Shown: one piece after another, positions 32,687 through 47,684 of the stretch
How positions within the stretch are numbered: the first letter of the stretch is position 1
Layout of the letters: every line of letters begins with the position of its first letter
Origin: Escherichia phage vB_EcoS_IME347
Direction: 5' to 3' (one strand)
Sequence record: MH051918
Length of the DNA stretch: 50,048 bases
Notes under the pieces: generated by a model
Told to the model about the DNA's origin: nothing
Databases searched by the model: none
What the model saw: the letters and a program-made list of their open reading frames with translations, nothing else
Made by a program: the position numbers and the translations under genes

Positions 32687-32729
32687 ACAGCACAAATAGC
32701 TAAACATGTAATTCTCGGGGTGTTATAAT
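32687..32729 (+). promoter_or_regulatory. box/-10 promoter cassette
   Basis: Box ACAGCACAAATAGCTAAA. Inverted repeat GGGGTG/CACCCC with TGtTATAAT in the loop. 21 nt spacing. Sits upstream of erf. Confidence 0.6.
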
Positions 32730-32767
32730 GCACCCCGTAGACAAGAAACCAATCAGGAGATAACGAA

Positions 32768-33421
32768 ATGATTCTTTCCCCACAGTCTGACCAAATCCTC
32801 CCGGCTCTGTTCAAGGCTCGCGGTAAATTCGTGAAGGCGAAGAAAGACCGACAAAACACCCACCTGAAAAACAAGTATGCAACGCTTGATTCCATGATGG
32901 ACGCCGTTACCCCGGCACTTACGGAAAACGGTATTATGATCATGCAATCCATGCTCGACACGAGCACGGACACAACCTTCCATCTGGAAACGATGCTGAT
33001 TCATGCGGAGAGCGGACAGTTTGCCCGGTTCTTTATGTCAATGCCGATCGCGAAGCGTGACCCTCAAGGCGTAGGCTCCGCAATGACTTATGCACGGCGA
33101 TACGGGTTGGCGGCGGCTCTCGGTATCAGTCAGGCGGACGACGACGCGCAGCTTGCCGTTAAGTCAGCGTCGGACTGGAAAAAGGATCTCGACGATTGCG
33201 AAACGTTCGACGAACTGAAAGACGTTTGGGCGAATGCCTTCCGCCAGTGTGACGCAGCGAACAGAACCATCGTTCAAGATCACTACAACCAACTGAAGGC
33301 GAAATTCGAAGTCGGCAAGGCTCGTCCGTTCGCCCCGGCGCAAAAGCCGAAGGTTGAAAAACAGGTTGAACCTGAGCAGCGCAAGCCTGTACAATCTCAA
33401 TCAATCGAAGGTTTCGAATAA
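32768..33421 (+). CDS. erf: Erf-family single-strand annealing protein, 217 aa
   Basis: KNKYATLDSMMDAVTPALTENGI and MTYARRYGL are typical ERF-family motifs. Confidence 0.8.
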   Translation: MILSPQSDQILPALFKARGKFVKAKKDRQNTHLKNKYATLDSMMDAVTPALTENGIMIMQSMLDTSTDTTFHLETMLIHAESGQFARFFMSMPIAKRDPQGVGSAMTYARRYGLAAALGISQADDDAQLAVKSASDWKKDLDDCETFDELKDVWANAFRQCDAANRTIVQDHYNQLKAKFEVGKARPFAPAQKPKVEKQVEPEQRKPVQSQSIEGFE

Positions 33422-33468
33422 TATCAACCGGGCGGGTAACACCGCCCTTTATCATGAGGTGAAAAAAT

Positions 33469-33885
33469 ATGCACGTTATCACAGGCGAGATCCGAAAAGC
33501 TCCATTCGTAAAGCAGCAACCAAACGGAAATCTGTATATCATCGAACTGTCCGAGCGATACAAGCCGGGACGCGATGCGGCTGCGGAGTACACGAACTAT
33601 AAGTTCTTCTTCAATGACGGCGGCAGACAAGCGATCGCAGATTGGTACGCCGAAGCATTCCAGCAGGGCAAGGTTATTTCAGTGTCGTGTGAAGTCCTGA
33701 AAGCCGAAGTTCGCGATCACGAAGGCAAGACCTACGTTACCCTTATGCCGGGCGACTTCCCGAAATTGCTCTTCAGTCAGCGAGGCGGTAGCGCTCCGCA
33801 GCAATCACAACAACGCCAGCAGTCGCAGCCTCAGCAACGACAGCCGCAGCAACAACAAAACTTCGACGACGATATCCCGTTCTAA
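33469..33885 (+). CDS. ssb: single-stranded DNA-binding protein, 138 aa
   Basis: OB-fold-sized N-terminal part, a Gln/Pro-rich linker, and the canonical acidic tip DDDIPF at the C-terminus. Confidence 0.85.
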   Translation: MHVITGEIRKAPFVKQQPNGNLYIIELSERYKPGRDAAAEYTNYKFFFNDGGRQAIADWYAEAFQQGKVISVSCEVLKAEVRDHEGKTYVTLMPGDFPKLLFSQRGGSAPQQSQQRQQSQPQQRQPQQQQNFDDDIPF

Positions 33886-33911
33886 TAAAAAAGCCCCCAA
33901 TCGGGGGCTTT
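33886..33911. terminator. bidirectional terminator between ssb and the tail fibre gene
   Basis: A6, then GCCCCC-aatc-GGGGGC, then TTT. Confidence 0.75.
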
Positions 33912-33914
33912 CTG

Positions 33915-35780
33915 CTATCTCGCCTTCAGTAAGTCAGCGACAAGTGTTTTAAGATCCTCAACCTCACTTTCAAGCTTGCTGATTCTCTCCTTGTTTTCAA
34001 CGTCACGCGCACGAAGCGCCTTGATTGCAGCCATGCTATCAGTTACTAACGGGTTGAGATCTAAGCACATCATCCCAGGCGTGTTACCGTTAATGTGAAC
34101 ATATTCTTTATCGATCTTCATTACCTGCTGTGCGATAACACCTCTACGGGCAGACCTTTCAGGCGAATCAAAGGTGTATTTGAACAGCTTGAAATCCATG
34201 CGATTGATATTGTCAAGCGCCGACTCAATGTTCATACTGCCTTTGATATCCTTGACTCGCTCGTCAGAAGTTCCCGCTATCTGAAGCTGATTCCAAGGAA
34301 CTTGTGATTTTGGGGTTTGCGGGTTTCCAGTTTGCAGCCAACGACAATATGCGTTCCCCGATGGGTTTACCATAAATTGCGCCAATCTTGCAGGATCATA
34401 ACATGCTTGAAATCCAGCACCATTTGACGCAGCCCACAAAGTCCCGCCGTCATTCTCGGAAAAGAAGGAGTTTGCTGAAACGGTCGGCCTCGCGGCGTAC
34501 TGATATCCAACTCCATAATCCCCCTCAATTACCGATTTATTCCAATTACCCCACCCTAAACTAGGCGTGTAGAATCTAGCAACCCACCTGCCGTTATCGT
34601 CAAGCTGAGCCTGATAAACATCATTAACTCGCCTCATTACAATTCCGGGAGCATACGGCCTTGCATAGTTAACTCCGGGTATGCCAGCACCAGCGAAAAA
34701 TCCGTTTCTTTGAAGGTCGTTTGCGTTGTTTGGCGCGATCACTCCAGTGGTATTCAATCCGAATTCGTCTAATTTGTTGCTGATTCGATTGTCGACTTGA
34801 TTTGATGATTCAAATTTAACCCACGAAGTCCAGTTTACAGTAGAGCCTGACGGCATGCCTCGCCGCTTGTAAAATTCATCGGCGTTGTACGGGTGATAAA
34901 TTTGCGTCGCCTCATTCGCCCCGTTCGCGCCACTATAAAGCACAACGAGAACACCAGCCGCTTGCACTGGATAGTTATTCGCTGGAGTGGCGTTAGCCGT
35001 TGCCGCATTCAAGTGAAACCCTACGTTAGCATAACCAACTTTTGTGTTTAGATTTTCGCTTGCCGTCAGACTTTCGCGCGGCACGAATGGCACTTCAAGG
35101 TTATACCTTGCCGTAACCTTATTTAGCAGATCTGCAAGGTTCTGATCCTTCTTCATGAACGTGTTTGGCTGAAGTGAGTCAGCGTAACCTTTCGCGCGAT
35201 TGGCCTCGTTAGTTGCAGCCGTCGCCTTCTGGCTCGCCGTTGTCGCACTTCCAGATGCAGCCTGCGCTGATGATGCTGCGGCTTGCTGTGCAGATTGAGC
35301 CTGATTCCTTGCTGTTTCCGCACCTGTCTTTGCGTTGTTCGCTGCCGTTGCGCTTGATGCGGCGTTGTTCTTAAAGCCTTCCGCATCGTTTCGGAATTTC
35401 TGAGTCTGATTTTTCAGATCGATTAATTGCTGAAGATCGAAGTTTTCAAAGAATTCCAAAGCCTCTTCGATCTGTGTTTCTTTGCCCTGATAGTAACGCA
35501 AGGTTTCCGCAACGTCCTGCGCCATTCCGTCAACCGTCAGCGAATCACTGAGCAGGATCACATAATTCCCGTTCGGAACCGCCGAGCCGTCAGTTGAAAT
35601 AGCCGTCATTGAAGTGTCGCTTACGATCGTGTTAATCACCGCCAGCTTAATTGGACTCGTAAGGAATACGATCGTTGCACCAGTGCGAATCAAGGAAAGA
35701 GGCTCTTTCCACTTCGTCCCGGTGCCTGTAATGTTGCCTTGAGCGTCCATCGACGCCGTTCCATTTCTGTATAAAGCCAT
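33915..35780 (-). CDS. tail fibre with C-terminal intramolecular chaperone (peptidase S74-like), 621 aa
   Basis: Ala/Gln-rich coiled region. C-terminal ...[12 protein letters not shown]...[12 protein letters not shown]...GVIAQQV... and a terminal coiled coil are typical of self-cleaving S74 chaperone domains. Confidence 0.8.
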
Positions 35781-35798
35781 GGTAAATCCTCCAAGTAA

Positions 35799-35816
35799 AT
35801 AGCACTAATTGCTAAG
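35799..35816 (+). promoter_or_regulatory. box copy between two leftward genes, abutting the tail fibre RBS
   Basis: ATAGCACTAATTGCTAAG on the plus strand. Read leftward, it is CTTAGCAATTAGTGCTAT followed by TTACTTGGAGG and the ATG. Confidence 0.4.
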
Positions 35817-35879
35817 CACCGATTTTATCATTGTGGTATGCGCCCGGCAATAGGGCAATAAAAAACCCGCCGAAGCGGG

Positions 35880-36824
35880 TTAGATTAAATCCGATGCCTG
35901 ATAAAGCTTGCGTTCCATTCCTGACCGGAAACCTCCCGGATTCGGGATTATCACCTTCAACTCCCGATCGTCCGCCATATACAGAGCTTCCTTATCATCC
36001 GGCGAACATGCAACGCGCAACTCCCTTCCTCCTCTGTACCTGTATGCAACCATTTCCAGATTGGCAGGGGTGAAGCACGTCCACACCTCCTGCCCCGTCG
36101 CAAGGTGTACTCGCTGCGAGTCAATCCAATCAACGCAAAGGTAAATCGCCTTCTCAGTAGAACCTGTCACGGCAACCGATCCGGCAGTGTGCTTCCTTGC
36201 ATAGAACGACTGCTCCCCCTCCTCATTAATGAATAGGATATTGCAAAACTCGTCGTCCAATTCATCTTCATGAACAAGGTGGCATGGAATGGCATGAATT
36301 ACCGATTCTCCGCCATTCTCCAGCGACTTCACGCCTACGGAGTACATCTTATCATCTGGTAGGAAGATCCCCTCATACGTGCTCAGTGGCGTCGTAGGGC
36401 GTAGTTCTGTCCTTTCCATTACAGCCGCGCAAGCCTCATGCTCTGCGATCGCAGCATTCACTACGGCAACCGGAGTGCGGCGAGCCTTTTTATTCGCCTT
36501 GACAATATACTCCTGCGGAACTTTACCCAAGAATCTCCCGGCAATATTGATTGCTTCGCTGTAGTCAGACCCGGAGAGTTTCATTAGCCAGCCGATACCC
36601 GTGTCGTTACCGCACGAGTTGCACACCGCGCCGCCGTCGCCCGGCTCATTTAGTTTATCAGTCCAGCGAAATCGATCTTTACCTCCGCAGTTTGGGCAAG
36701 GCTGGTGTTTCTTGTTAAAAACGTCGTTAGGTAGTCCGCAAACACTCTGCAAGATCTCACGCCACAGCCCTTTCATGTACGGAAGAACATCTTCTTTCTG
36801 GTACTGCATAAAGTTCTCGTTCAC
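35880..36824 (-). CDS. DNA primase (zinc-ribbon + Toprim-like), 314 aa
   Basis: HQPCPNCGGKDRFRW...CNSCG is a P4-alpha-type primase zinc ribbon. GTG start after GGAGA. Cassette 36857-36900 upstream. Confidence 0.75.
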   Translation of the reverse strand: MNENFMQYQKEDVLPYMKGLWREILQSVCGLPNDVFNKKHQPCPNCGGKDRFRWTDKLNEPGDGGAVCNSCGNDTGIGWLMKLSGSDYSEAINIAGRFLGKVPQEYIVKANKKARRTPVAVVNAAIAEHEACAAVMERTELRPTTPLSTYEGIFLPDDKMYSVGVKSLENGGESVIHAIPCHLVHEDELDDEFCNILFINEEGEQSFYARKHTAGSVAVTGSTEKAIYLCVDWIDSQRVHLATGQEVWTCFTPANLEMVAYRYRGGRELRVACSPDDKEALYMADDRELKVIIPNPGGFRSGMERKLYQASDLI

Positions 36825-36839
36825 TGAATTATCTCCAAT

Positions 36840-36873
36840 AAAAAACGCGTAACAGGAGTTTACCCGCTACGCG
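36840..36873 (-). terminator. terminator-like hairpin enclosing the primase -10
   Basis: Read on the minus strand: CGCGTA, a 16-nt loop, TACGCG, then T6 and ATTGGAG. Confidence 0.45.
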
Positions 36874-36900
36874 CTTTTGTGTTTTAGCTATTTGTGCTCT
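36857..36900 (-). promoter_or_regulatory. box/-10 promoter cassette (primase)
   Basis: Read on the minus strand: AGAGCACAAATAGCTAAA. 22 nt spacing to TAAACT. The hexamer lies in the loop of CGCGTA/TACGCG, which is followed by T6. Confidence 0.55.
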
Positions 36901-37327
36901 CGACTTCATCCTTTCGAACTACGCGCATGAACTTGCGGTTCTTGCATCGTTTTTCAAGGCACTTTCCGTTAGAGTCGAACTTGAGATCGAATCGCAGCCA
37001 GCTTGCGCGATACCCGGTACAACCCTGACGACGATACGCGCGATGCGCCGCCTCCGCTCCCTGCCAAGAAATCATGCCGCGAACTTTCCATTCGTTCACA
37101 TTCTGATTTGTTACCTTCAGGGCTTTCGCCGTGGCGGAGGGGGAGCCGTAGAATTCGATCAGGGCGTCAAGTCTGGCGCGTAGTCCGGCGCGAACCTCAT
37201 CTTTCAGGATGTAGAATCCGCATCGCTTGCGAGGCTTTACATCTTTGCCCCGTCGTGTACCATTGTTCCCGTTCAGGTGACGACGATCGATTTCCCCGGT
37301 TGATTCTGCAATACGCTTGATTGTCAT
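36884..37327 (-). CDS. HTH DNA-binding protein (YdaS/Cro-like) with basic Cys-containing C-terminus, 147 aa
   Basis: SATAKALKVTNQNVNEWKVRGMISWQGAEAAH resembles the YdaS/Cro-type HTH. Its last codons (AGC ACA AAT AGC TAA) form box 36883-36900. Confidence 0.55.
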   Translation of the reverse strand: MTIKRIAESTGEIDRRHLNGNNGTRRGKDVKPRKRCGFYILKDEVRAGLRARLDALIEFYGSPSATAKALKVTNQNVNEWKVRGMISWQGAEAAHRAYRRQGCTGYRASWLRFDLKFDSNGKCLEKRCKNRKFMRVVRKDEVESTNS

Positions 37328-37340
37328 AATAAATTCCTCA

Positions 37341-37383
37341 ATAGCACTTTTTGTTAAAACTAACTAATCGATGCGTGTATTAT
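37341..37383 (+). promoter_or_regulatory. box/-10 promoter cassette (helicase)
   Basis: Box ATAGCACTTTTTGTTAAA. 21 nt spacing to TATTAT (37378-37383). Inverted repeat GCGTG/CGCAC. Confidence 0.55.
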
Positions 37384-37387
37384 ACAG
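37379..37387 (-). promoter_or_regulatory. CTGTATAAT -10-like nonamer (leftward, HTH gene)
   Basis: Reverse complement of ATTATACAG. Overlaps the rightward TATTAT of the helicase cassette. Confidence 0.4.
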
Positions 37388-37420
37388 TCAACGCACGAGT
37401 AACGCAAAGGATTAAGAACA

Positions 37421-39472
37421 GTGAAAATCACCCAAGAGACACGAGAGTATTTCCGCACTCAAAACATTAAAAAACAGATCGCAATGCTCGGGGAGGATTA
37501 CATCCGACGCACTCAGGAGCGCTTCCGGGTTGGCGATATCACCCCTTACGAATATCAGGTTGCGGCATACTTTGAGATCGCGAAGCGACTCGGGAAAGAG
37601 TACGAACATCCATTTTACGTAAAAGCCTCAGTATCTGCGGGCAAGACGATTATCTTCGCGATGGTGGCGAAACAATGTCAGGCGATGGGGCTGAAAATGC
37701 TCGTTCTCGCTCGTCAAGGTGAGATTGTGGATCAGGACAGTGAGGAGATTGACAACTTCGGAGTTCCGAATTCCATCTTCTCCGCATCGCTCGGAATCAA
37801 GTCCTGCCACTTCCCGATCGTGGTTGGCTCCGAAGGTACTGTAGGCAATGGCCTGTTCAATGAGTTATCCGATTTTGTCCCGCACGTAATCGGGATCGAT
37901 GAATGTCACCAAGTCGATTGGGAGGACGTGGCGAAGGCGATCGAAGGCAAAGAGTCCTATGCGCAAATGACCACGGATAAGGGATCTATCGTAATGGACG
38001 GCGATATTCCTCTGATTGGTGATGATGGATTGCCAGTTACCGGAACGAAGCGTTCTCAGTACACCGTAATCATCGTCGAAATGATGCGCCGTTGCCGGGA
38101 GAGATACGGGCATGAGTTGCGCGTGTTTGGCATGACGGGATCGGAGTATCGCGGCGTCGTTCCAATTCTCGTTGAGAACAAAAAGCTCGTTGGCTTCTGG
38201 CGTGAGCAGGTGACGAACATTGACACGAACTACCTGATTGAGTTCGGCTCAGTTGTCCCAACCGTGTTTGGCTCAACCGAGGGGGTTCATTACGATCTCG
38301 ACAAGTTCAAGGCGAGCGCCGAAGATGGTGTGTCGGACTTCTCAGAGAAAGAAATGAAGGCGATGGAGGCCGAAATCGTCAAGGATAAATCCTTGACCGA
38401 GAAGATTATGAAGATGGTTGCGAAGGAGGCGGAGAAGCGCAACGCCGTGCTTATCACCTGCGCCGGGCAGCGCCATTGCAAAGAAGCTGCGGCGGCATTG
38501 CCGCCGGGAAGCACTTACGCGATCATTACGGACAAGACAAGCCCGAAAGCACGACAGAAGATTTTGGACGACGTTCGCGCCGGGAAAATCAAGTACACCT
38601 TTCAGGTAATGGCGTTAACGACGGGCGTAAACGTTCCGAATTGGGACTTCTCCGTTATCCTACGCAAGATCGGCTCGCTGACATTGCTGATTCAGCTTTT
38701 AGGGCGCGGAATGCGACTGCTGAAGAAATGGCAAATTGAGCAGGGAATGGTTAAGACTGACCATCTTGTATGGGACTTCGCCGGAACTATGGACGAGTTG
38801 GGGCAGCTTTATTTCGATCCAATTTTGGAACAAGCTCAATATCAGCGCCGTTTCGAAAACGGGAAAGACCCGAAGAAATGCGAATTATGCGGTCACGAAA
38901 ACAGCTTCTATGCGCGTCGTTGCGTGAACGTTATCAACGGCCAGCGCTGTGAGCACTTCTGGACATATCAGACCTGTGAAGATCAGGTAGACGAGAAAAC
39001 AAACAAGGTTCTCGTTAAGGGCTGCGGGGCGAAAAACGACGTGGTAGCGCGTGTTTGCCGTTGCTGTGACGTATCGCTTGTCGATCCTAACCTGAAGTTA
39101 TCCGGCAAGGCGTACACGAAAAACGATTGGTACGACGTGAAACACTTCGAAGTTAAGTTGACGAAAAACCAAAAGGGGATAATATTCCATTACGTCCTTG
39201 ATAATGGCGAGGGTGAATTTAATGCATACGAAAAATTCTTCCCGGAGTCCGATGCGAAAGTGTGCGGGACGCTGTGGAAAACGAAAGGTGTATTGCCGCA
39301 CGTATTCGATCCGAAGATGCGCAAATACTTCATTGGGATGAAGAAAGCAATCAAGATCCTGCAATACGCACACCACATTAAAGCGCCTGTTAGAGTCACT
39401 CACCGCCGCAACGCGAAGAAAGAGGACTTAATCAGCCGCAAAGATTTCGGAATGGAGGAAATTCCAGAATGA
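37421..39472 (+). CDS. SF2 DNA helicase with C-terminal zinc ribbons, 683 aa
   Basis: Walker A in SVSAGKT and DEAH-like motif II in GIDECH. Motif VI region LLGRGMR. C-terminal CELCG...C..C and CRCC clusters. GTG start. Confidence 0.85.
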   Translation: MKITQETREYFRTQNIKKQIAMLGEDYIRRTQERFRVGDITPYEYQVAAYFEIAKRLGKEYEHPFYVKASVSAGKTIIFAMVAKQCQAMGLKMLVLARQGEIVDQDSEEIDNFGVPNSIFSASLGIKSCHFPIVVGSEGTVGNGLFNELSDFVPHVIGIDECHQVDWEDVAKAIEGKESYAQMTTDKGSIVMDGDIPLIGDDGLPVTGTKRSQYTVIIVEMMRRCRERYGHELRVFGMTGSEYRGVVPILVENKKLVGFWREQVTNIDTNYLIEFGSVVPTVFGSTEGVHYDLDKFKASAEDGVSDFSEKEMKAMEAEIVKDKSLTEKIMKMVAKEAEKRNAVLITCAGQRHCKEAAAALPPGSTYAIITDKTSPKARQKILDDVRAGKIKYTFQVMALTTGVNVPNWDFSVILRKIGSLTLLIQLLGRGMRLLKKWQIEQGMVKTDHLVWDFAGTMDELGQLYFDPILEQAQYQRRFENGKDPKKCELCGHENSFYARRCVNVINGQRCEHFWTYQTCEDQVDEKTNKVLVKGCGAKNDVVARVCRCCDVSLVDPNLKLSGKAYTKNDWYDVKHFEVKLTKNQKGIIFHYVLDNGEGEFNAYEKFFPESDAKVCGTLWKTKGVLPHVFDPKMRKYFIGMKKAIKILQYAHHIKAPVRVTHRRNAKKEDLISRKDFGMEEIPE

Positions 39473-39894
39473 TTACAGATAAGGGCGATTATTTAGAGTT
39501 TTACGAGCGCGACCCGAGCGACACGAGAAAGGAGGTAGTTCACCAAATTGAGAGCACTTCCTTTTTGAAAGTTCGACACCCTGACTTGCTGTTTTGGCAT
39601 AGTGTCAACGAGAACGAGAAGAGCAAGGCGACCGCAATGATTGATCAGCAATCCGGCTTATTGAAGGGAGTTAGTGACTTCGTTTTCCTGATTGGTTTCA
39701 ATCACCGATACCCGTTCGCCGCAATCGAACTTAAGCGCGTGAATAAGTCCGGCAAAGGCAAGGCGTCACCCGTAAGCGATGAACAGAAAGCCTTCTTGCG
39801 GAAGGTCAGGGAGCGAGGCGGGTTCGCCGCAGTAGCCTACGGGGTGGAGCAGTTAAAACTCGCAGTAGCTGAAATGCTCAAACAGCACGAATAG
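39469..39894 (+). CDS. VRR-NUC domain nuclease, 141 aa
   Basis: GVSDFVFL...AAIELKR gives the G-x-(S/P)-D...E-x-K pattern of VRR-NUC. ATGA overlap with the helicase gene. Confidence 0.7.
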   Translation: MITDKGDYLEFYERDPSDTRKEVVHQIESTSFLKVRHPDLLFWHSVNENEKSKATAMIDQQSGLLKGVSDFVFLIGFNHRYPFAAIELKRVNKSGKGKASPVSDEQKAFLRKVRERGGFAAVAYGVEQLKLAVAEMLKQHE

Positions 39895-39925
39895 CTAAAA
39901 CAGCCGGAAAGGAATCCGGCATAAT
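39882..39925 (+). promoter_or_regulatory. box/-10 promoter cassette (dam)
   Basis: Box ACAGCACGAATAGCTAAA, which overlaps the VRR-NUC stop. Inverted repeat GCCGGA/TCCGGC. 22 nt spacing to CATAAT. Confidence 0.6.
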
Positions 39926-39954
39926 CACCACATCGAAACAACGGAGAGAAACAA

Positions 39955-40668
39955 ATGAAAGATATCGAAGATATTTCAACGATCGACTTTGCGGAAACTG
40001 GATGTTCATTTACTCGCGAAGCGCTGGCGGTTTCCGGGTATTATTCAGCGGTTAAAACTCCAACCTGCAAAGAAATCTCAGGCCGCAGATACAAGGGAAC
40101 CAATACGCCGGACGCCGTTCGCGATCTGTGGAGCACTTCTCGCGAGGTCATTGCGTACATGGAAGGCAGATATGGGAAATATGATCTTGACGCTGCGGCG
40201 AGCGAAGATAATAAGGTCTGTGAGAAATTCTACTCACAGGAAACTAACTGCCTAAAAAGATGGTGGGGCAAGAACAAGCACGTTTGGCTGAATCCGCCAT
40301 ACAGCCGCCCGGACGCCTTCGTTAAAAAGGCTATTGAGCAAATGGAGCACGGAAACCAAATTGACATGCTTCTGCCCGCCGATAATTCTACGGCATGGTT
40401 TACTGAGGCTCGCCGTAACGCTGCGGAAATCATCTGGATTGAAGGCGATCTTTATCAGGATCTTGACGGTACGGAATACTCCCGTTCAGGACGTTTGGCC
40501 TTCATTTCTGGTGAAACCGGAAAGCCAGTTGACGGCAACAATAAAGGCTCTGTTATCTTTATCATGCGCCAACTCGCGGAAGGTGAGAAGCAGAAAACCC
40601 ACTATGTCAGCATTGCGGATATTTGCCCGTCCGTTAAAAACAAACGCGCAAGAGCGAGGAATATCTAA
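39955..40668 (+). CDS. dam: DNA N6-adenine methyltransferase (phage Dam family), 237 aa
   Basis: The catalytic NPPY motif appears in VWLNPPYSRP. The family pattern is that of phage Dam methylases. Confidence 0.8.
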   Translation: MKDIEDISTIDFAETGCSFTREALAVSGYYSAVKTPTCKEISGRRYKGTNTPDAVRDLWSTSREVIAYMEGRYGKYDLDAAASEDNKVCEKFYSQETNCLKRWWGKNKHVWLNPPYSRPDAFVKKAIEQMEHGNQIDMLLPADNSTAWFTEARRNAAEIIWIEGDLYQDLDGTEYSRSGRLAFISGETGKPVDGNNKGSVIFIMRQLAEGEKQKTHYVSIADICPSVKNKRARARNI

Positions 40669-40910
40669 TGAATGAGAAAACTGTTTGCCTGAATGAATTT
40701 GGTCAATGGATGCTGTTCCGTGGGCTGGCGTGTTATGCGCTGGAGCGTCACGGCTTGACGGAAAAGGAATTGGGTTGCTCCCTTTGGGAATTCACGGAGT
40801 CGCTTGATATGTCATTCGAGGAAATTCGAAGTCTTGATTTGGCTCAGTGGGCTACAAAAGTAATGGCGGACGCCGAAGAGCTTAGAAACGAGATCGTGAA
40901 AAAGCACTAA
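40668..40910 (+). CDS. hypothetical small protein, 80 aa
   Basis: Track ORF with TAATG overlap with dam. Its last codons (AAG CAC TAA) form box 40901-40918. Confidence 0.7.
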   Translation: MNEKTVCLNEFGQWMLFRGLACYALERHGLTEKELGCSLWEFTESLDMSFEEIRSLDLAQWATKVMADAEELRNEIVKKH

Positions 40911-40944
40911 TTGCTAAACGTACCCGGCGCAAGTCGGGTATTAT
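40901..40944 (+). promoter_or_regulatory. box/-10 promoter cassette
   Basis: Box AAAGCACTAATTGCTAAA. Inverted repeat CCCG/CGGG. 22 nt spacing to TATTAT (40939-40944). Confidence 0.6.
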
Positions 40945-40975
40945 TGTTTTATTGAAACGAAACGGAGAATCACAA

Positions 40976-41173
40976 ATGACTCGCATCAATGAAGCTTTCT
41001 TTAAAATGGCTCAGTCCTCCGCTAAGACGGCGACGGAATTAACCTCGTATCACGCCGGGCAATTTGATTGGGCTATCGCAATGGACTTCCTGAAAATGGC
41101 TTACTACCGTTGCACCGTTGAGGATATGGAAGGTTTCATTCGTGACGTTGAGAAGGTACTGAATAGTGATTAA
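40976..41173 (+). CDS. hypothetical small protein, 65 aa
   Basis: Track ORF 40952.. trimmed to ATG 40976 (GGAGA 8 nt upstream), after cassette 40901-40944. Confidence 0.7.
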   Translation: MTRINEAFFKMAQSSAKTATELTSYHAGQFDWAIAMDFLKMAYYRCTVEDMEGFIRDVEKVLNSD

Positions 41174-41438
41174 AGAATCTGGAAGGCAAGCCGTTTGGAG
41201 TCACGCAAAAGAAACGGGGCTGGCGGACGGGATCGCACTAATTGCTAAATACTTCGATATAAAAGACGTTAGTATTATCGGCAACGGGAAGATAACCTTC
41301 ATCGAAGAGCTTCCCCGGAAGTGCCACCGAGTCCCGGCAACTCCCGGACTTGAGTTTTACCGGGAGGAGGGTAAGCGAATCATGCAAGAATTTAAGGCGA
41401 GCAAAAATGACAAGAGAACTTCCCGGCTTAAACGGTAA
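41166..41438 (+). CDS. hypothetical small protein, 90 aa
   Basis: Track ORF with a GTG start that overlaps the upstream end by 8 nt. Contains an internal box/-10 cassette at 41232-41275. Confidence 0.55.
   Translation: MIKESGRQAVWSHAKETGLADGIALIAKYFDIKDVSIIGNGKITFIEELPRKCHRVPATPGLEFYREEGKRIMQEFKASKNDKRTSRLKR
41232..41275 (+). promoter_or_regulatory. box/-10 cassette located inside an ORF
   Basis: Box ATCGCACTAATTGCTAAA, encoded as GIALIAKY. 22 nt spacing to TAGTAT (41270-41275). No obvious inverted repeat. Confidence 0.4.
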
Positions 41439-41652
41439 CTTTGACGGCTACCCGATCGTTGAGTTCGAAGGGGAGAAATATCGGGAGATTCCATTCTCTG
41501 ATTGGTTGCCTTCGGATTTCGAAACAGTTCCATGCAGCAGGGGGGGCGGTCTTATCCCGATGTGGTATAGCCCGGCTCGAAACCTTATGGTGTTTGATAA
41601 CGGCTGCGGAATGAAACCCTCCGATCTCAAAGTCTGGTTGAGGAAACTGTAG
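41407..41652 (+). CDS. hypothetical small protein, 81 aa
   Basis: Track ORF 41350.. trimmed to ATG 41407 (MTRELPGLNG...). Overlaps the upstream ORF by 32 nt. Confidence 0.6.
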   Translation: MTRELPGLNGNFDGYPIVEFEGEKYREIPFSDWLPSDFETVPCSRGGGLIPMWYSPARNLMVFDNGCGMKPSDLKVWLRKL

Positions 41653-41655
41653 AAT
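41647..41655 (+). promoter_or_regulatory. CTGTAGAAT -10-like nonamer
   Basis: Overlaps stop 41650-41652. Upstream of the HTH-phosphoesterase gene. Confidence 0.35.
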
Positions 41656-41725
41656 GTTCGGTTACTTTGGTGTAGTATTCACCCCCGTAATAGCTTTCAC
41701 TCTCATTTATTTAATTGTAATGTAA
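41654..41725 (+). CDS. micro-ORF, 23 aa hydrophobic peptide
   Basis: Hand-translated: MFGYFGVVFTPVIAFTLIYLIVM. GAGGAA lies 8 nt upstream. Confidence 0.4.
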   Translation: MFGYFGVVFTPVIAFTLIYLIVM

Positions 41726-41737
41726 GGAATTAGAAAT

Positions 41738-42877
41738 ATGTCAATGTCAAAAATCACAACCGAACAGCTTATCGAAGAGCGCGAAAACGGCCTGACCCTT
41801 CGCGAGATCGCGGAGAAGTACGGGATGCATATCCGCACGGTTGAGGCTCGACACGCGAAGCTTGCAAAGGAAGGTCACTTCCACGGCAACAAGCACGTAG
41901 CCGCCAACGTTCCGACCGGGTTCGCCGTAAAAGGTACGTCCGTCATGATTGACGCCGAAGGCAACGAAAAGGTTCGCTGGGTTAAGACCGATCAGGACAA
42001 AGAGAAGATTTACCAACTCATGCAAGCGGCGCAGGTTGCATTTTGCGAAGAGTTGCCGCGCGAAGCCCCAACCCCGATCGAAATAAACAAGCGATTCGAC
42101 GAGGATTCGCTGGCGCTTTACCCGGTATTCGATCTTCATATCGGCGCACTGGCGCACAAGCACGAGTCCGGCGAGAACTACTCCACCGATATCGCGGAAG
42201 ATGTTCTGAACAAGTATTTCGGCTATGCAGTCGGCAAGGCTCCTAACGCACAAAAAGCCGTCCTGTTAATCGGCGGTGACTTCCTGCACTCTGACGGCCT
42301 TGACGCTGTTACCCCGGCAAGCGGTCATGTTCTGGATCAGGACTCGCGTTATGCCAAACTGGTTTACGTCGCAATCCGCGCTACTCGCCGGGCGATCGCT
42401 AAGATGCTGGAGAAACATGCTGAGGTTGAGGTTCAGATTATCGAAGGCAACCACGATCAGGCAGGTATGATTTGGCTACGCGCTGCAATGGCGGCATACT
42501 ACGAGGACGAGCCGCGCGTGAACGTTGACGTTAGCCCGATGATTCTGCACAAAACCCGTTGGGGCAAAACGCTGTTAGGCTACACTCACGGTCACACGAT
42601 GAAGAAAGCGGACACTCGCCTTGCAGCAATGGCGGCAGACTTCCGCGATGATTTCGGCGCGAGCAAGTACGTTTACACTCACAGCGGTCATTGGCATCAC
42701 CAGACGATCACCGAGCATACGTTGGGTATCGACGAGGTTCACGGTCAACTCGGGGCGAAGGATGCTTATGCGGCTCGCGGCGGCTGGCGAGCGTACCGTC
42801 AAGCGGCTGTTATCGTGTACTCAAAAGAGTTTGGCGAGATCGGGCGCTTTATCTACCGTCCAGAAATGACGGCGTAA
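41738..42877 (+). CDS. HTH + calcineurin-like metallophosphoesterase fusion, 379 aa
   Basis: N-terminal LTLREIAEKYGMHIRTVEARHAKL looks like an HTH. Phosphoesterase motifs DLHIG, GGDFLH, EGNHD, YTHGH and HSGHWHH follow. Confidence 0.7.
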   Translation: MSMSKITTEQLIEERENGLTLREIAEKYGMHIRTVEARHAKLAKEGHFHGNKHVAANVPTGFAVKGTSVMIDAEGNEKVRWVKTDQDKEKIYQLMQAAQVAFCEELPREAPTPIEINKRFDEDSLALYPVFDLHIGALAHKHESGENYSTDIAEDVLNKYFGYAVGKAPNAQKAVLLIGGDFLHSDGLDAVTPASGHVLDQDSRYAKLVYVAIRATRRAIAKMLEKHAEVEVQIIEGNHDQAGMIWLRAAMAAYYEDEPRVNVDVSPMILHKTRWGKTLLGYTHGHTMKKADTRLAAMAADFRDDFGASKYVYTHSGHWHHQTITEHTLGIDEVHGQLGAKDAYAARGGWRAYRQAAVIVYSKEFGEIGRFIYRPEMTA

Positions 42878-42922
42878 ATAGCACAAATAGCTAAAGACAA
42901 ATCAGGGGTAACGAGTTATAGT
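42878..42922 (+). promoter_or_regulatory. box/-10 promoter cassette
   Basis: Box ATAGCACAAATAGCTAAA. Inverted repeat GGGGTAA/TTACCCC (the same arms as the copy at 7201-7224). 23 nt spacing to TATAGT. Confidence 0.6.
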
Positions 42923-42951
42923 TACCCCACACAAACAAAGGAGATTTAGCA

Positions 42952-43059
42952 ATGAAAGAGTTCATCTTGAAAACTGTAATCCCATTCGTTGCCGGAGCAG
43001 CAGTAACGGGCTTCTTTATTTGGGTTTTGTCTTTGGCTGGAGACTTCAACGGTTTCTGA
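42952..43059 (+). CDS. micro-ORF, 35 aa single-helix membrane peptide
   Basis: Hand-translated: MKEFILKTVIPFVAGAAVTGFFIWVLSLAGDFNGF. AAGGAGA RBS. First ORF after cassette 42878-42922. Confidence 0.6.
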   Translation: MKEFILKTVIPFVAGAAVTGFFIWVLSLAGDFNGF

Positions 43060-43069
43060 GGAAAAATAA

Positions 43070-43246
43070 ATGACTCGTGTAAAGTGCATTCGCAATGATT
43101 CCAAATCGCTCCCGTTCCAAGTGAACCAGATCTACTCTGTGGGCTACCATCACGGCGGCGGGATTTACGAGATCTACGACGGGCAAGGCTCTGCAATCCA
43201 AGCGCCTCTGAACGGATTCTATCTCGAATTCATTGCCGTAAAATAA
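43070..43246 (+). CDS. hypothetical small protein, 58 aa (KxKC family)
   Basis: Hand-translated: MTRVKCIRNDSKSLPFQVNQIYSVGYHHGGGIYEIYDGQG... GAGGA lies 7 nt upstream. Followed by terminator 43272-43297. Confidence 0.6.
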   Translation: MTRVKCIRNDSKSLPFQVNQIYSVGYHHGGGIYEIYDGQGSAIQAPLNGFYLEFIAVK

Positions 43247-43271
43247 ACCATGCAAATCAATCAAATAACCT

Positions 43272-43297
43272 AAAGGGGGCTTTATGCCTCCTTTTTG
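43272..43297 (+). terminator. intrinsic terminator before the lysis cassette
   Basis: GGGGGC-tttat-GCCTCC (one G.U pair) followed by T5. Confidence 0.65.
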
Positions 43298-43367
43298 TGC
43301 TGTTCCTTTTCTGACCCCCTTCCTATATTATATCCCCACTACATTTTTTAACTTTGGGGAATAATCC

Positions 43368-43583
43368 ATGAAAGACTTTATTAACGCTGCAATGTCCGGC
43401 ACGGGCGGAGCAACCCTCACGAGTGCGGCAACCGGGCAGTTGATGATCGCCGCGCTGACCTTCGTTTTCTTTATGTCCTTTGGTGTTTGGGGCGCTTACT
43501 GGAAGTACCGAGACAGCAAAGCGATCCGGGAAGCTATCGACGCCGGGGATCTGAAAACAGCAATCTCAATCAGGAATAAATAA
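43368..43583 (+). CDS. holin (putative), 71 aa
   Basis: Small protein with the hydrophobic core [21 protein letters not shown] and a charged C-terminus. Sits immediately upstream of the endolysin gene. Confidence 0.7.
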
Positions 43584-43585
43584 TT

Positions 43586-44083
43586 ATGGGCGCAATCAAA
43601 AATACATTGGTTGCGGCTGGCGTTTCTTCTGCGCTTGTCCTCATGCCGCAACTGATCGAGAAGTACGAGGATGTGAAGTTTGAAGTCTACTACGATATCG
43701 CGGGCGTCCCAACTGTATGCGCTGGCATTACCGGGAAAGACGTGATTATCGGCAAGAAGTACACGAAGCGGGAGTGTGACGCTCTGCTCATTAAGCATAT
43801 CAATTATGCTGCGTCGCAGGTTGATAAAGCCGTCACCTATCCGATCCCGGTAACGATGCGGGCGGCGATGTACAGCTTCGCCTACAATGCCGGAACCGGA
43901 GCGTTTCGCAAATCAACCATGCTCAAACTGATTAATAAGGGTGAGCTTAAAGCGGCCTGTAACGAGCTATGGAAGTGGACTTACTTCTATAACCCCAAGA
44001 CAGGCAAGAAAGAGAAATCGCGCGGCCTGAAGAACCGCAGGGCTTCAGAATTTGAATATTGCATGAAGGAGTTGCCGAAATGA
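43586..44083 (+). CDS. endolysin, GH24 lysozyme-like with N-terminal SAR-type signal-anchor, 165 aa
   Basis: The weakly hydrophobic Gly/Ala/Ser-rich N-terminus [18 protein letters not shown] is followed by E...D...T lysozyme motif context ([24 protein letters not shown]). Confidence 0.8.
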
Positions 44084-45003: not shown

Positions 45004-46566
45004 TTACATTAAGCGCGGATTGATATAAATGTTGTCGTCCACACGGCAAACGTAATTCATGCTTTCCAGCGTTTCCAGCAACGTTTCGATACGCTCCGCA
45101 ACCTTTTGCTGCCCGTTAAACGGAGTGACGTTCCGGCACTTCGCGATCACGCTCTGAATCTGCGCCCGGCCTTTGTTCTTTTTGGCGATCTCACTAACCA
45201 CGTCGATAAGCTTGCGTGATTCAGCTTCATCACCTGCGAAACCTGCGGCGTTTGCAGACGAGAGATAAGTTTTTGACAACTCGTTAAACGTCATGATCGC
45301 TTCCTGCATTGTGTCCAAGTCGATCTCACGATTCGCCCGGTTCGGCTTCTCACCAGCCCAATTCTTGATCGTGTGAATCACGGACGCGATACGAATTACG
45401 TGTTTATCGAATTTCCCCAAGTGACCGCGCAACATGGAGTGTGAGTATTTCCCGCCCGCCGCGAAGCTGGCTTCCATATCCTGACGAGCAAGGTTCAGCG
45501 CTCGGGTTGCGTGAAGGCTCAGGCTGAAAACTACCTTCTCTTCGTTCATGACGTTATGAACGAGGCGGTAATATTTGCTCACGAGCGCCTTGTCAACTGG
45601 CTTGTAAACTGCGTCGCCGTTCTCGTCACACAATACGCGAGTACCCAAACGAGGCTCTTCGCGAACCAGTAAGAAACGCTCGGAAACACCGATACCGCGC
45701 TGACCTGCATCCATGATGCCCTTGATTGTTTCGTCCTGCGCGATTACGCAAATTGCACCAACCGGACGTAAAGAAAGGTTGTTGTCCTGATTGGATCGAG
45801 CTACTTCCATATGGTTCATATCCCAAGCCTTCAGGATTAGCTCGCTGTTCGACTTCTTATCAGTCCCGCCATACGTCAAACCGAGAAGTGTATTGATTGC
45901 CGTCGCTTCGTCCGAGATAACGGAGAAGTTACCCTGAATCGCCGCAACCTTAGCCAAACCCTCTGGAGTAGGATCGGAAACCGCAAACACAACGTTAGCA
46001 GCCTTTTTGAGCTTCTCTTCGATTTTCTCCTTCTCTTCGTACAGGGCAACCATTGAGTTTCCTTTTACGTCGTTCTTGATCTCCTTTTCGATCTTGCGGA
46101 GTTCCCCGGCGAGGCGTGAACGTTCGGCCTTACGCTTCTCGTTGATGCGGTCAATCTCTGCTCGCATCGGGTTAATGGCTGCGGAGTTGATCGCAGATTT
46201 ACCCGTTGACGGCGGCTGGCTGATTACCATGTAAAGTGCGGTTGGCTGCTCTTCACCGTGATAGTCAACCCAAAAGCGACCGAGCATCGCGGCGGACATA
46301 CATCCGATAAAGTGAGCGTATGCGGACGAAACCGGGAATTGCACTGATTCAGCTTTAGCCTTTGCGTATTCGTAAACGAGGTTATCGCCACCGAGGGAAA
46401 TCAACGGAAAACGATCGTTGCCGCTGTTAATCTCTTCGGGCTTATCCCAAAAAGCAAATGAATCCGAGAAGCCGTTTTCGCGAATAGCGATCGCCACCGG
46501 ATTTACTCCAGTAGCTGCGGCGATTTCTTGGATCTGATTGATGGAAAGTTTATTTTGGAAGAACAT
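45004..46566 (-). CDS. DUF3987-like P-loop protein (putative replicative helicase/primase-associated), 520 aa
   Basis: Walker A-like ISQPPSTGKS, preceded by a long N-terminal domain. AAGGAG RBS. Cassette 46595-46638 upstream. The family assignment is from memory of the DUF3987 pattern. Confidence 0.55.
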   Translation of the reverse strand: MFFQNKLSINQIQEIAAATGVNPVAIAIRENGFSDSFAFWDKPEEINSGNDRFPLISLGGDNLVYEYAKAKAESVQFPVSSAYAHFIGCMSAAMLGRFWVDYHGEEQPTALYMVISQPPSTGKSAINSAAINPMRAEIDRINEKRKAERSRLAGELRKIEKEIKNDVKGNSMVALYEEKEKIEEKLKKAANVVFAVSDPTPEGLAKVAAIQGNFSVISDEATAINTLLGLTYGGTDKKSNSELILKAWDMNHMEVARSNQDNNLSLRPVGAICVIAQDETIKGIMDAGQRGIGVSERFLLVREEPRLGTRVLCDENGDAVYKPVDKALVSKYYRLVHNVMNEEKVVFSLSLHATRALNLARQDMEASFAAGGKYSHSMLRGHLGKFDKHVIRIASVIHTIKNWAGEKPNRANREIDLDTMQEAIMTFNELSKTYLSSANAAGFAGDEAESRKLIDVVSEIAKKNKGRAQIQSVIAKCRNVTPFNGQQKVAERIETLLETLESMNYVCRVDDNIYINPRLM

Positions 46567-46594
46567 CGTTTTAACTCCTTATTGGACGGGGTAA

Positions 46595-46638
46595 ATTATA
46601 CCCCGCCCATACTACACGCTTTTAGCTATTTGTGCCAT
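46595..46638 (-). promoter_or_regulatory. box/-10 promoter cassette
   Basis: Read on the minus strand: ATGGCACAAATAGCTAAA. Inverted repeat GGGGTA/TACCCC with TATAAT across the loop. 22 nt spacing. Drives the DUF3987-like gene. Confidence 0.6.
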
Positions 46639-46641
46639 TCG

Positions 46642-47058
46642 TTACAAGTATTTCGCTTCGAACGTTGTCCCGTCCGCGATGGAGAATCCCACCTCTTCGC
46701 GGAACAGAGTCCAGCGACATCCTTCGCTATCGAAGATGTACCCGGCGACGCCACCGAGCGCCCGACCACTTTCAACCTGATAGCGCTTGCCTACTTTGAA
46801 GGACTTCTTCATCGGATTCTTGTGATCAAGCCCGGTACACTTCAGGGTTTTCGTTTTCAACTCGGTGAACTTCGCAAAGTGTATTTCATCGACGTTGTGG
46901 ATCTGGAATTCGTCATGCTTTCCGAGCGGGTAAAACTTTCCGTCAGGGTGCTTTACTTCTCGCGTACCGTCGTCATGCTCGCGGCCTTTATACAGGTTGT
47001 TTGTTGTGAATCCGGTAACTGATTCCGCTGAAGTGCATTTCAGTTTGATAGTTTTCAT
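46642..47058 (-). CDS. hypothetical protein with two KxKC family repeats, 138 aa
   Basis: Track ORF. Contains IKLKCTSAE... and TLKCTGLD...KVGKRYQV. Cassette 47097-47140 upstream. Confidence 0.75.
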   Translation of the reverse strand: MKTIKLKCTSAESVTGFTTNNLYKGREHDDGTREVKHPDGKFYPLGKHDEFQIHNVDEIHFAKFTELKTKTLKCTGLDHKNPMKKSFKVGKRYQVESGRALGGVAGYIFDSEGCRWTLFREEVGFSIADGTTFEAKYL

Positions 47059-47096
47059 CGATTCATTCCTTCTGATTGGTTATCTTGAATAAGGCC

Positions 47097-47140
47097 ACTA
47101 TATCAAATGGCCTTACGGCAATATTAACAAATCGTGCTAT
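47097..47140 (-). promoter_or_regulatory. box/-10 promoter cassette
   Basis: Read on the minus strand: ATAGCACGATTTGTTAAT. GGCCAtttgatatagTGGCC is identical to the hairpin at 3669-3688. 22 nt spacing to TGaTATAGT. Confidence 0.65.
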
Positions 47141-47371
47141 TTACCAAGGAATATAATCCTTTCCCGGCTCCGAATCATCTTCGGCGGTCATAACGAAATT
47201 TGGATCGAATTCGCTTTCTGCATCCATATCCATTTCACCAAGAGCCTGTTCCAAGGTTAAATCCTGATACGCAACTTTGATACAATATTCGCGATTCAGT
47301 CCGGCATCCTGCGCAGTTAAAAAACGATGCCAGAAGTTATCATCATTATTTTTGCAAGGTGCATTGGTCAT
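47141..47371 (-). CDS. hypothetical acidic small protein, 76 aa
   Basis: Track ORF (GTG 47386) trimmed to ATG 47371, which lies 9 nt after GGAG. Confidence 0.65.
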   Translation of the reverse strand: MTNAPCKNNDDNFWHRFLTAQDAGLNREYCIKVAYQDLTLEQALGEMDMDAESEFDPNFVMTAEDDSEPGKDYIPW

Positions 47372-47376
47372 TTCGA

Positions 47377-47601: not shown

Positions 47602-47640
47602 CTTTATTTCCTTGTTTTGTCGTTTCGTTTCGATGGGGTG

Positions 47641-47684
47641 ATAATATCAAATCACCCCGAGGTTGTTTTAGCAATTCGTGCTAT
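47641..47684 (-). promoter_or_regulatory. box/-10 promoter cassette
   Basis: Read on the minus strand: ATAGCACGAATTGCTAAA. Inverted repeat GGGGTGA/TCACCCC. 22 nt spacing to TGaTATTAT. Confidence 0.65.

Follow-up and report, generated by a model that had tools for sequence, protein, structure and literature searches.

A recurrent box and -10 hexamer cassette in the T1-like phage vB_EcoS_IME347 as a candidate portable promoter module of non-late genes

The cassette and the genes that it heads

The genome of Escherichia phage vB_EcoS_IME347 (sequence record MH051918) carries many copies of a short intergenic cassette in which a conserved box is followed, at a nearly fixed distance, by a hexamer resembling a sigma-70 -10 element; among the genes it precedes are those for primase, helicase, dam and erf. 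The stretch analysed here, which we call the window, is 50,048 bases long and comprises a whole T1-like phage genome (Drexlerviridae, Tunavirinae). Although T1 belongs to the seven classic T phages, its transcription programme has, to our knowledge, never been worked out. What is the cassette for? We describe its copies, their anatomy and their conservation, and then weigh what might read the box.

The left arm of the genome holds small genes (0.4-9.5 kb, plus strand) and leads into the virion block (9.6-29.7 kb, plus). A short gene group (29.7-31.1 kb, minus) is followed by recE, erf and ssb (31.6-33.9 kb, plus), by the genes for tail fibre, primase and a putative regulator (33.9-37.3 kb, minus), and by those for a helicase, a VRR-NUC protein, dam, an exonuclease and lysis (37.4-44.5 kb, plus); small genes and a second helicase make up the right arm (44.6-50 kb, minus). 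This order agrees with that of phages BrunoManser and T1. With a 14-kb query, 30000-44000, the best match was to Escherichia phage BrunoManser (79% identity, with 70% of the query covered), and T1 matched at about 75%.

A search pattern for the box was built from the copy before dam and applied with up to three mismatches, with 100 shuffles as control; it found 16 matches in the window against 0.00 expected. A looser pattern yielded about 31 boxes, 25 of them with a TAnnnT hexamer 21-23 nucleotides (nt) further on (20 at exactly 22 nt). All but one of these 25 cassettes are sense-oriented, lying on the strand of the downstream gene, whose start codon is 71-84 nt from the first T of the box, and the sense copies follow the pattern TAGCAC-N3-WTGYTAAA, 22(±1) nt, TAnnnT. 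The seven cassettes that a preliminary description of the sequence had listed, before primase, helicase, dam, the small genes at 40976 and 42952, erf and a signal-peptide protein gene, were all recovered where it had placed them.

The primase cassette (36825-36899, minus strand) consists of a box at 36883-36899 (GAGCACAAATAGCTAAA), a 22-nt spacer and the -10 hexamer TAAACT at 36857-36862, with a predicted start near 36850. The helicase cassette (37342-37420, plus) has a T-type box at 37342-37358, 21 nt and TATTAT at 37378-37383, with a predicted start near 37390. Before dam (39883-39954, plus) the box at 39883-39899 and the -10 CATAAT at 39920-39925 flank a spacer hairpin, GCCGGA/TCCGGC. Two small genes on the same strand are headed likewise: a 65-residue gene at 40976-41173 by the cassette at 40902-40975, with its box from 40902, and a 35-residue gene at 42952-43059 by the one at 42879-42951, with its box from 42879, a 23-nt spacer and TATAGT at 42917-42922. 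The erf cassette (32688-32767, plus) combines the box CAGCACAAATAGCTAAA, 21 nt and TGtTATAAT ending in the hexamer at 32724-32729, with the -10 in a hairpin loop. On the minus strand, the cassette at 30054-30127 (box 30111-30127, TATACT 30085-30090) precedes the signal-peptide protein gene 29715-30053, whose product begins MKKIIAAIMFTASFNAMA.

The arms hold the remaining sense copies. A left-arm run of 11 (970-7718, plus) has boxes starting at 970, 1235, 2252, 2586, 2953, 3642, 4652, 5472, 5978, 7175 and 7643; these boxes are mostly G-type (TAGCACGAATTGCTAAA), and the copy at 5978 precedes polynucleotide kinase. A right-arm run of six (46567-49878, minus) has boxes starting at 46637 (before the second helicase, 45004-46566), 47139, 47683, 48875, 49514 and 49878. 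Box subtypes are regionally clustered: the GAA/TTGC subtype predominates in the left arm, boxes with AAA or GAA and TAGC stand before erf, primase, dam, the gene at 42952 and the second helicase, and TTT-type boxes occur between helicase and regulator, at the capsid and chaperone sites described below and in parts of the right arm. This clustering could reflect local spread or regulatory subclasses. Two further boxes stand apart. A T-type box at the left end of the window (19-35, minus), with a T1 counterpart at 119 (minus), is cut off from any downstream -10. An intragenic box at 41233-41249 (TCGCACTAATTGCTAAA, plus), which lacks a hairpin, lies inside the open reading frame (ORF) 41166-41438 and is kept in T1 (40309) and BrunoManser (31598); either an internal promoter or a constraint on the coding sequence could account for it.

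The distribution of the sense copies separates two gene classes. None of the 24 heads a virion gene, and at co-directional junctions with a gap of at least 55 nt they occur at 0 of 10 in the virion block (the fibre/primase junction included) as against 22 of 29 elsewhere. T1, BrunoManser, TLS and Rtp, from three subfamilies, have syntenic counterparts of the copies at erf, at primase, at helicase and after VRR-NUC (the one that precedes dam in this genome). Distribution and synteny together support the proposal, already made in the preliminary description, that the cassette marks a class of non-late genes distinct from those of the virion, and it is plausible that this class is a temporal one, early or middle. 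The further statement that no canonical copy lies between 9.6 and 29.7 kb is, strictly, wrong, since a full minus-strand copy runs from 19924 to 19882; and what holds for sense copies does not hold for the box itself, which recurs at late genes over or after a -10 or in reverse.

The box is also tied to the end of the preceding gene. In 23 of the 25 cassettes the stop codon of the upstream ORF falls within -7 to +15 of the start of the box, as TAA just 5' of ATAGCAC, as TAG in TAGCAC, as TAA or TAG in the variable centre, or as TAA in GCTAAA, and the box region supplies stop codons in all three frames. The VRR-NUC gene thus ends in KQHE and its stop codon inside the dam-cassette box (39883), and the gene upstream of 40902 ends in KKH and its stop within that box; with GKH at 2953 and STNS at 36899, each likewise followed by the stop, these are the endings from which a joint constraint on coding sequence and site had been proposed, and all four are correct, in support of that constraint.

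Promoter-like anatomy and hairpins

A sequence logo was drawn from 91 copies with 22-nt spacing, taken from the window (22 copies) and from BrunoManser, T1, TLS and Rtp. The five-genome profile reads aATAGCAC-N3-TTGcTAAAa, 14 unconserved bases, t..G.TAtaaT, ...c.cA and an A-rich leader. A wider sample of 80 further Drexlerviridae loci from IMG/VR gave 411 distinct cassettes, in which box and hexamer are separated by 22 nt in 277, 21 in 77 and 23 in 28. The conserved G of the logo is the -14 G of an extended -10, and TG is found there in 12 of the 25 window copies. The seventh base after the hexamer is A, after C or T, in 22 of the 25; an A preceded by C or T is the usual context of a transcription start, and we infer that transcription begins at this A, 7 nt past the hexamer; besides the two starts given above, this puts predicted ones at 39932, 40951, 42929, 32736 and, on the minus strand, 30078.

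With that A as +1, the box would lie at -49 to -33 and its TTGCTA at -40 to -35. Could TTGCTA be an ordinary -35? At 22 nt from the -10 it is five base pairs (bp) too far upstream; nothing better stands at 16-18 nt, and the hexamer at 17-19 nt is cTAAAA. A sigma-54 promoter was likewise considered and rejected: its consensus is TGGCAC-N5-TTGCW, with GG at -24 and GC at -12 exactly 10 nt apart, and the box has AG in place of GG (GG only at 46637) and 8 nt to GC, two short of the required 10. A UP element, an A/T-rich tract at -40 to -60, does not fit an invariant core, AGCAC...TGC, that contains G/C. As there is no -35 at the normal distance and the box would sit at -49 to -33, we therefore read the cassettes as -35-less promoters for the host RNA polymerase, with the box as an upstream protein-binding site.

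The box has a symmetry suited to that role. Its 15-bp core, TAGCA-N5-TGCTA, is a dyad that, counted from the predicted start, is centred at -42, and the half-sites lie 10 bp apart centre to centre, one helical turn. Across 143 boxes the five pairs of the dyad are complementary in 62-98%. A 10-bp spacing of half-sites is what is expected for a dimeric helix-turn-helix (HTH) protein, as at Cro-type operators.

Between box and start lies a second element, which differs in sequence at every copy. Hairpins were judged by per-copy folding z-scores and by comparison of orthologues, the stems sitting in different registers among copies. The mean z-score of the box-to-start region is -3.5 in the window, where 85% of copies fall below -1.5, and -2.2 to -3.5 in the four relatives. 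A stem-loop in the spacer or around the -10 is present in 22 of the 25 window copies: in seven it takes up the spacer as far as the -10, and in 15 it has the -10 in its loop, the 5' arm coming from the spacer and the 3' arm from positions -6 to +2. The stem sequences are wholly different from copy to copy. Because the predicted start coincides with the end of the 3' arm, the hairpin would form only in RNA arriving from upstream. A search of the whole window against Rfam gave no match.

The primase copy is the clearest case. Its -10 lies in the hairpin loop, TTTTTT comes next, and the stop codon of the regulator gene is in the box; with its T-run, the hairpin is thus predicted to be the terminator of the regulator gene, with the primase promoter nested inside it. 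Among about 40 distinct orthologous versions, 38 of 40 fold at -14.7 to -22.6 kcal/mol on unrelated stems (GCGTAG.., GCGTGTGTGG.., CCCAGC.., GCCTGGCATG.., GGTTGTGC.., GGGCGCG..), and in most the -10 is in the loop and a T-run lies 3' of the stem. The RefSeq record of T1 annotates the orthologous primase hairpin, and some other copies, as rho-independent terminators; in TLS the primase hairpin is T57, and some other cassette hairpins are also listed as terminators (PMC11447400).

Boxes at late genes and a candidate regulator

At the late genes terS, major capsid, tail chaperone, J and tail fibre the box occurs alone or reversed, and its position there is conserved in T1, BrunoManser, TLS and Rtp. 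Late genes share a layout of their own: a strong terminator with its T-run and then, about 5-25 nt further on, TGnTAnAAT or (C)TGTA(G/T)AAT, without a good -35. On this basis promoter-like sites were placed at 9558-9590, 19862-19880, 23915-23932 and 26050-26066 and, on the minus strand, at 35822-35850, and the layout is kept at terS, J and the fibre gene in the same four relatives.

What sets the late boxes apart is where they stand relative to the putative -10. At terS a lone forward box (9582-9598, plus) overlaps it: after the strong terminator comes TGaTAAAAT, whose end is the AT of ATAGCAC, which puts the box at about -7 to +10 and about 17 nt before the ribosome-binding site (RBS). In the leader of tail gene J a lone forward box (26081-26097, plus) lies 3' of a terminator and of CCTGTATAAT, at about +13 to +30, and its AAAGG is the RBS, 5 nt before the ATG at 26102. 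The tail-fibre site (35800-35850, minus), which lies outside the virion block and follows a terminator, reads TTGCCG-17-TGaTAAAAT (35850-35822), then a box that is reversed (35800-35816, on the plus strand) at about +5 to +22, then the RBS; this order is kept in most of about 30 distinct Drexlerviridae loci from several subfamilies. At the major capsid gene (16093-16150, plus) the site is a near-consensus TTGACG-16-TGcTATCAT, and a T-type box read in reverse complement (16100-16116) makes up its spacer and -10.

This promoter-like capsid site is followed directly by a hairpin, GCCGTTA..TAACGGC with TTTTTT, and then by the RBS, an arrangement also found in T1, BrunoManser and TLS; in TLS the box is DR7 and the hairpin T35 (PMC11447400). 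The order here, promoter then terminator, is the opposite of the usual terminator then promoter, and the site looks like an attenuation or antitermination layout. A different repeat is common to three other late gaps (11748-11795, 15473-15520 and 17153-17200), each with a TATAAT-like hexamer, a GGG-stem-loop-CCC, TTTTTT, ATTGGAGG and the start codon; two of the three read TA(A/C)TATAGGGA, like the core of a T7 promoter, probably by chance.

The minus-strand cassette in the virion block (19875-19924) has a T-type box at 19908-19924, 22 nt and TGaTACAGT with its hexamer at 19882-19887. It points antisense into the terminator of the major tail protein gene, with no credible ORF behind it, and is kept in T1 (18849, minus) and BrunoManser (10587, minus). 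Its box is at the same time the reversed box of the tail chaperone gene, adjoining the RBS of that gene. The minus-strand -10, TACAGT (19882-19887), faces a plus-strand TAGAAT (19875-19880) 3' of the major-tail terminator, and competition between promoters or a short antisense RNA could result. In Rtp the corresponding gap carries a sense cassette before rtp34. That the box is kept in either orientation, and stands before some promoters but over or behind others, fits an operator for a protein and neither an upstream contact of RNA polymerase nor an RNA motif.

Which protein might bind it? The preliminary description had put forward two HTH proteins, of which one keeps its place as a candidate. 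The gene at 41738-42877 encodes a DNA repair exonuclease (phrog_704, E 2e-154) with a marginal HTH_23 match at residues 13-36, and was rejected. The gene at 36884-37327 (minus) encodes a T1 gp23-type regulator of 147 residues (phrog_2856, 'transcriptional regulator', E 6e-73) with a Cro/YdaS-like HTH at residues 53-88 or so; the Pfam matches to P22_Cro and YdaS are below threshold, and weak structural-family matches point to P22 Cro (1rzs) and the Cro-like 5w8y and 3bd1 (E 0.005-0.04). The protein is present in all 80 loci, which were retrieved through it and are contigs of 13-53 kb rich in boxes. We regard it as possibly the factor that binds the box, and as the best candidate for that part.

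The site from which this gene would be transcribed carries a box too. Its sigma-70-type promoter (37379-37407, minus) is TTGCGT-17-TATAAT, and the TLS counterpart, TTGACT-17-TATCAT, has been published as P57 (PMC11447400). The -10 elements of regulator and helicase are reverse complements on the same palindromic bases, 37378-37384 (TATTATA/TATAATA), so the two divergent promoters are predicted not to be occupied at once, and the regulator transcript would contain the helicase box at about +14 to +31, adjoining the regulator RBS. This divergent layout is kept in about 54 distinct Drexlerviridae sequences.

A host factor in place of a phage protein is a further candidate for the reader of the box. 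The flanks of the box match the Lrp consensus yAGhAwATTwTdCTr, at 11 of 15 positions for G-type and 13 of 15 for T-type boxes, which could easily be chance and is a weak lead; the central A-T-T is unmatched in G-type boxes, and box C6 and the TAAAA tail fall outside the consensus. The exact 19-nt box occurs six times in 596 gigabases of bacterial and archaeal genomes, with about four estimated by chance and none enterobacterial, so there is no sign there of a host regulon or of prophage copies.

A few features lie outside the cassettes. Two non-coding regions of about 200 bp, 140-340 and 31240-31440, have 27-28% G+C against 50% genome-wide, and a 42-nt stretch at 88% identity (311-352 and 31423-31464) is common to both. 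Each adjoins a canonical promoter that has no box, TTGACT-17-TACAAT at 52-80 and TTGACT-16-TATACT just 5' of the recE start at 31610. The regions could be origins or immediate-early control regions. The box-less recE promoter region (31547-31609) nevertheless has a CAcATCAaCAACGAAGGAG-type leader as in the cassettes, and the leader motif is therefore independent of the box.

A known repeat, and what might read it

The box is not new in kind. The re-annotation of phage TLS described a 21-nt direct repeat with the consensus aaATAGCACnnnTTGnTAAAA (German, Kropinski et al. 2024, Phage 5:173, PMC11447400), found in 21 places (genomes have about 20 copies), oriented with the genes it precedes and some 76 nt ahead of their start codons, in G, T and A subtypes, and stated it also for T1, Rtp and Rogue1. 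In consensus, copy number, orientation, distance to the start codon and occurrence in a T1-like phage the cassette box is this family-wide repeat, and the TLS copies DR7, DR8, DR10 and DR11 are the window copies at the capsid, J, primase and helicase genes (PMC11447400). The TLS authors found only three sigma-70 promoters and left the function of the repeat open, suggesting stoperators of the L5 type first, then enhancer sites and UP elements (PMC11447400). The repeat is treated there by itself, and neither the -10 that follows after 22 nt nor a start site nor the hairpin is connected with it. New here are the fixed -10, often with an extended TG, and its predicted C/A start; the covarying hairpins that enclose or abut it; and a layout like that of PeSLs.

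The PeSL (promoter-early stem-loop) cassettes of T4-like phages are repeated modules with an early promoter that span the gap between the stop codon of one gene and the start codon of the next (Arbiol et al. 2010, PMC2839356; Comeau et al. 2014, PMC4122927). In lacZ tests their stem-loop, which is placed over the -10 or between it and the -35, terminated transcription (PMC2839356), and recombination between them shuffles accessory genes (PMC2839356; PMC4122927). The cassette resembles them in pairing a host-type promoter with a G/C-rich stem-loop placed in these ways, in clustering by small accessory genes and in being more conserved than the genes that flank it. It differs in that a PeSL has a consensus -35 and an A/T-rich upstream region, whereas the cassette has a specific box 5 bp further upstream; the phage families, myoviruses there and a siphovirus here, are unrelated; and terminator activity, promoter activity and minicircles were measured for PeSLs, whereas the cassette is known from sequence.

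Promoters activated in the class II manner, such as lambda PRM with CI at -42, CRP-dependent promoters with the site at -41.5 and the Mor- and C-dependent promoters of phage Mu, offer the closest parallel for the box. Like them the cassette has a good -10, no -35 and, given the predicted start, a dyad centred at about -42 over the place of the -35, and one protein could both activate from there and repress where its site overlaps a promoter. Unlike theirs, the box is asymmetric outside the dyad, and the activator is a candidate. Middle promoters of T4 form a temporal class and have a MotA box centred at -30, 11-13 bp from a sigma-70 -10. They share with the cassette a phage-specific, TGCT-containing box in place of the -35 before a normal -10, but the TGCT of the cassette is 22 bp from the -10, and no homologue of MotA or AsiA was found.

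Our preferred reading, to which we incline with modest confidence, is that the cassette is a standard portable promoter and insulator module of the early and middle genes of T1-like phages, with the box read by a dimeric factor. The 19-nt box, aATAGCAC-N3-TTGYTAAAa, carries or abuts the upstream stop codon and ends the upstream ORF. A 22-nt spacer leads to the sigma-70 -10 hexamer, with an extended-10 TG in about half of the window copies; transcription would start at the conserved C/A 7 nt past it, and an unstructured A/C-rich leader of 25-35 nt, the RBS and the start codon would complete the module. From the class II activator position, -42, the box would recruit or be bound by the dimeric factor, while the hairpin most likely attenuates or terminates read-through from the upstream gene, so that each small gene would become its own transcription unit, as in PeSLs. 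The module heads genes for replication and recombination, inserted genes and the accessory genes of the two arms, and not the core virion genes. Copies with TGn and a good -10 may fire unaided at once; the factor is probably required by those that lack TGn (primase, dam, 40902, 30127 and several arm copies), and it would repress wherever the box overlaps or follows a promoter, at its own gene and at terS, major capsid, tail chaperone, J and tail fibre.

One could go further and suppose that a single palindromic box and a single dimeric protein, the Cro-like regulator or a scarce host factor, set the whole temporal programme of T1-like phages: some 25 early and middle promoters without a -35 would be switched on from -42, terS, capsid, chaperone, J, fibre and the regulator's own promoter would be held off and later released by titration or inactivation of the protein, and terminator hairpins with the -10 of the following promoter in the loop would insulate the units. 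As a complete scheme we think this unlikely.

Several observations weigh against the preferred reading. Across subfamilies the regulator's recognition helix shows only moderate conservation (TNQNVNEW, SNQTVQGW, NLKTVWGW, TPQAVEEW), whereas the box is nearly invariant. The dyad is uneven, its left half-site nearly invariant and its right degenerate (TGYTA or AGCTA), and outside the 15 bp the box is asymmetric, with an invariant C at position 6 and the TAAAA tail. The 12 of 25 window copies with TGn and a good -10 could fire unaided. Most cassette hairpins lack a U-tract and are not canonical intrinsic terminators, the primase copy alone combining hairpin and T-run. The arm genes are presumably expressed first, and an activator made by the phage cannot be needed there; and a protein that is early activator and late repressor needs a further step that releases the late genes. 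Finally, a literature search for T1-like phages returned no transcript maps, 5' ends, kinetics or binding data.

Some of these points are what one would expect if no factor were involved and the host RNA polymerase read the box itself, through a UP-element-like contact with the alpha C-terminal domain or a displaced surrogate for the -35, making the cassettes strong constitutive early promoters. Expression of the early genes has to precede any phage protein, the box closes with an A-tract (TAAAA) at about -35 to -31, an extended -10 is present in 12 of the 25 window copies with the G at -14 conserved in the five-genome logo, and UP elements are among the suggestions for TLS (PMC11447400). The invariant core, however, is not A/T-rich as a UP element is, TTGCTA lies beyond functional -35 spacing, and an upstream polymerase contact would be senseless for the conserved reversed or lone boxes within or 3' of late promoters and in the regulator leader. 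We consider this account unlikely.

The operator-like boxes are accommodated differently if a phage repressor occupies every box, in the manner of stoperators, and shuts early and middle transcription later, the promoters themselves being constitutive. This was the first suggestion for TLS (PMC11447400), the candidate protein is Cro-like, boxes stand in operator position at its own promoter and at late ones, and, like the sites of L5, they are many copies of one short sequence in short intergenic gaps, co-oriented with transcription. But L5 stoperators block elongation downstream of promoters in a lysogen, whereas these phages are virulent, with no lysogenic repressor, and 24 boxes stand strictly 22 nt upstream of -35-less promoters, a fixed place upstream of the -10 that is needless for a roadblock and typical of activation; moreover, the 13 of 25 window copies with neither TGn nor -35 should be weak unaided. 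To us this makes pure stoperator action quite unlikely.

The spread of the cassette, which also speaks for the portable module, invites another account, in which it is a recombination substrate: a portable patch of homology for the swapping, insertion and loss of genes in co-infection, as for PeSLs, with the promoter role secondary. A megablast search with the left arm matched 325 phage records (Escherichia, Klebsiella, Shigella, Salmonella and others); nearly all of the matches listed cover just 3-13% of the query, and those at 3-4% consist of three or four pieces of about 90% identity that coincide with cassettes, the intervening genes being unrelated. Cassettes are thus about 90% identical among hundreds of phages with unrelated flanking genes. 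What comes after the VRR-NUC cassette varies: dam in this phage and in T1, an additional small gene in BrunoManser, and different genes in Rtp. The virion block of Rtp has full sense cassettes at 6317, 8426, 16304 and 21394, before the HNH genes rtp20 and rtp40 and before rtp22 and rtp34; it seems, then, that inserted genes either carry a cassette of their own with them or come to lie behind one, and in T1 an HNH gene abuts a box exactly. The three-frame stops in the box would suit such exchange.

Homology breakpoints give a mixed answer. Over all regions of four genomes nine fell in cassettes against 5.3 expected, no clear signal; in non-virion regions it was 11 of 66 against 5.0 expected (p = 0.01), a modest excess, confounded with gene boundaries, which are favoured anyway, and obtained with no relative more than 90% identical. 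A role in recombination alone leaves the exact 22-nt spacing, the conserved start and the covarying hairpin stems unexplained, and as the primary function it is in our view very unlikely; it is, all the same, compatible with the promoter module. Last, a box that acted in read-through RNA, as a processing, stability or protein-binding site with a small AGCA/UGCU hairpin beside the larger one, would be part of polycistronic read-through RNA and is in keeping with the commonest variant, GCTA to GTTA, which preserves pairing as G-U, but it is highly improbable given that the box lies upstream of the predicted start and so would be absent from the cassette's own mRNA, that conserved copies in both orientations mean different RNAs, that the spacing to the -10 is fixed and that no Rfam family matched.

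In conclusion, the finding is mainly a well-supported instance of a known family-wide element, and its distinctive points are a promoter model of fixed geometry, a promoter in the loop of a terminator and a box with one placement at early promoters and another at late ones. If the module reading is true, the repeat, as the upstream half of a fixed-geometry promoter without a -35, supplies about 25 missing promoters per genome, together with exact predicted start sites and a named candidate for the regulator. The module is compact and portable, with stop codons, insulator hairpin, promoter, leader and RBS in about 75 bp, which makes it a possible part for synthetic biology, and this portability would explain how small accessory genes have been swapped among hundreds of Drexlerviridae.

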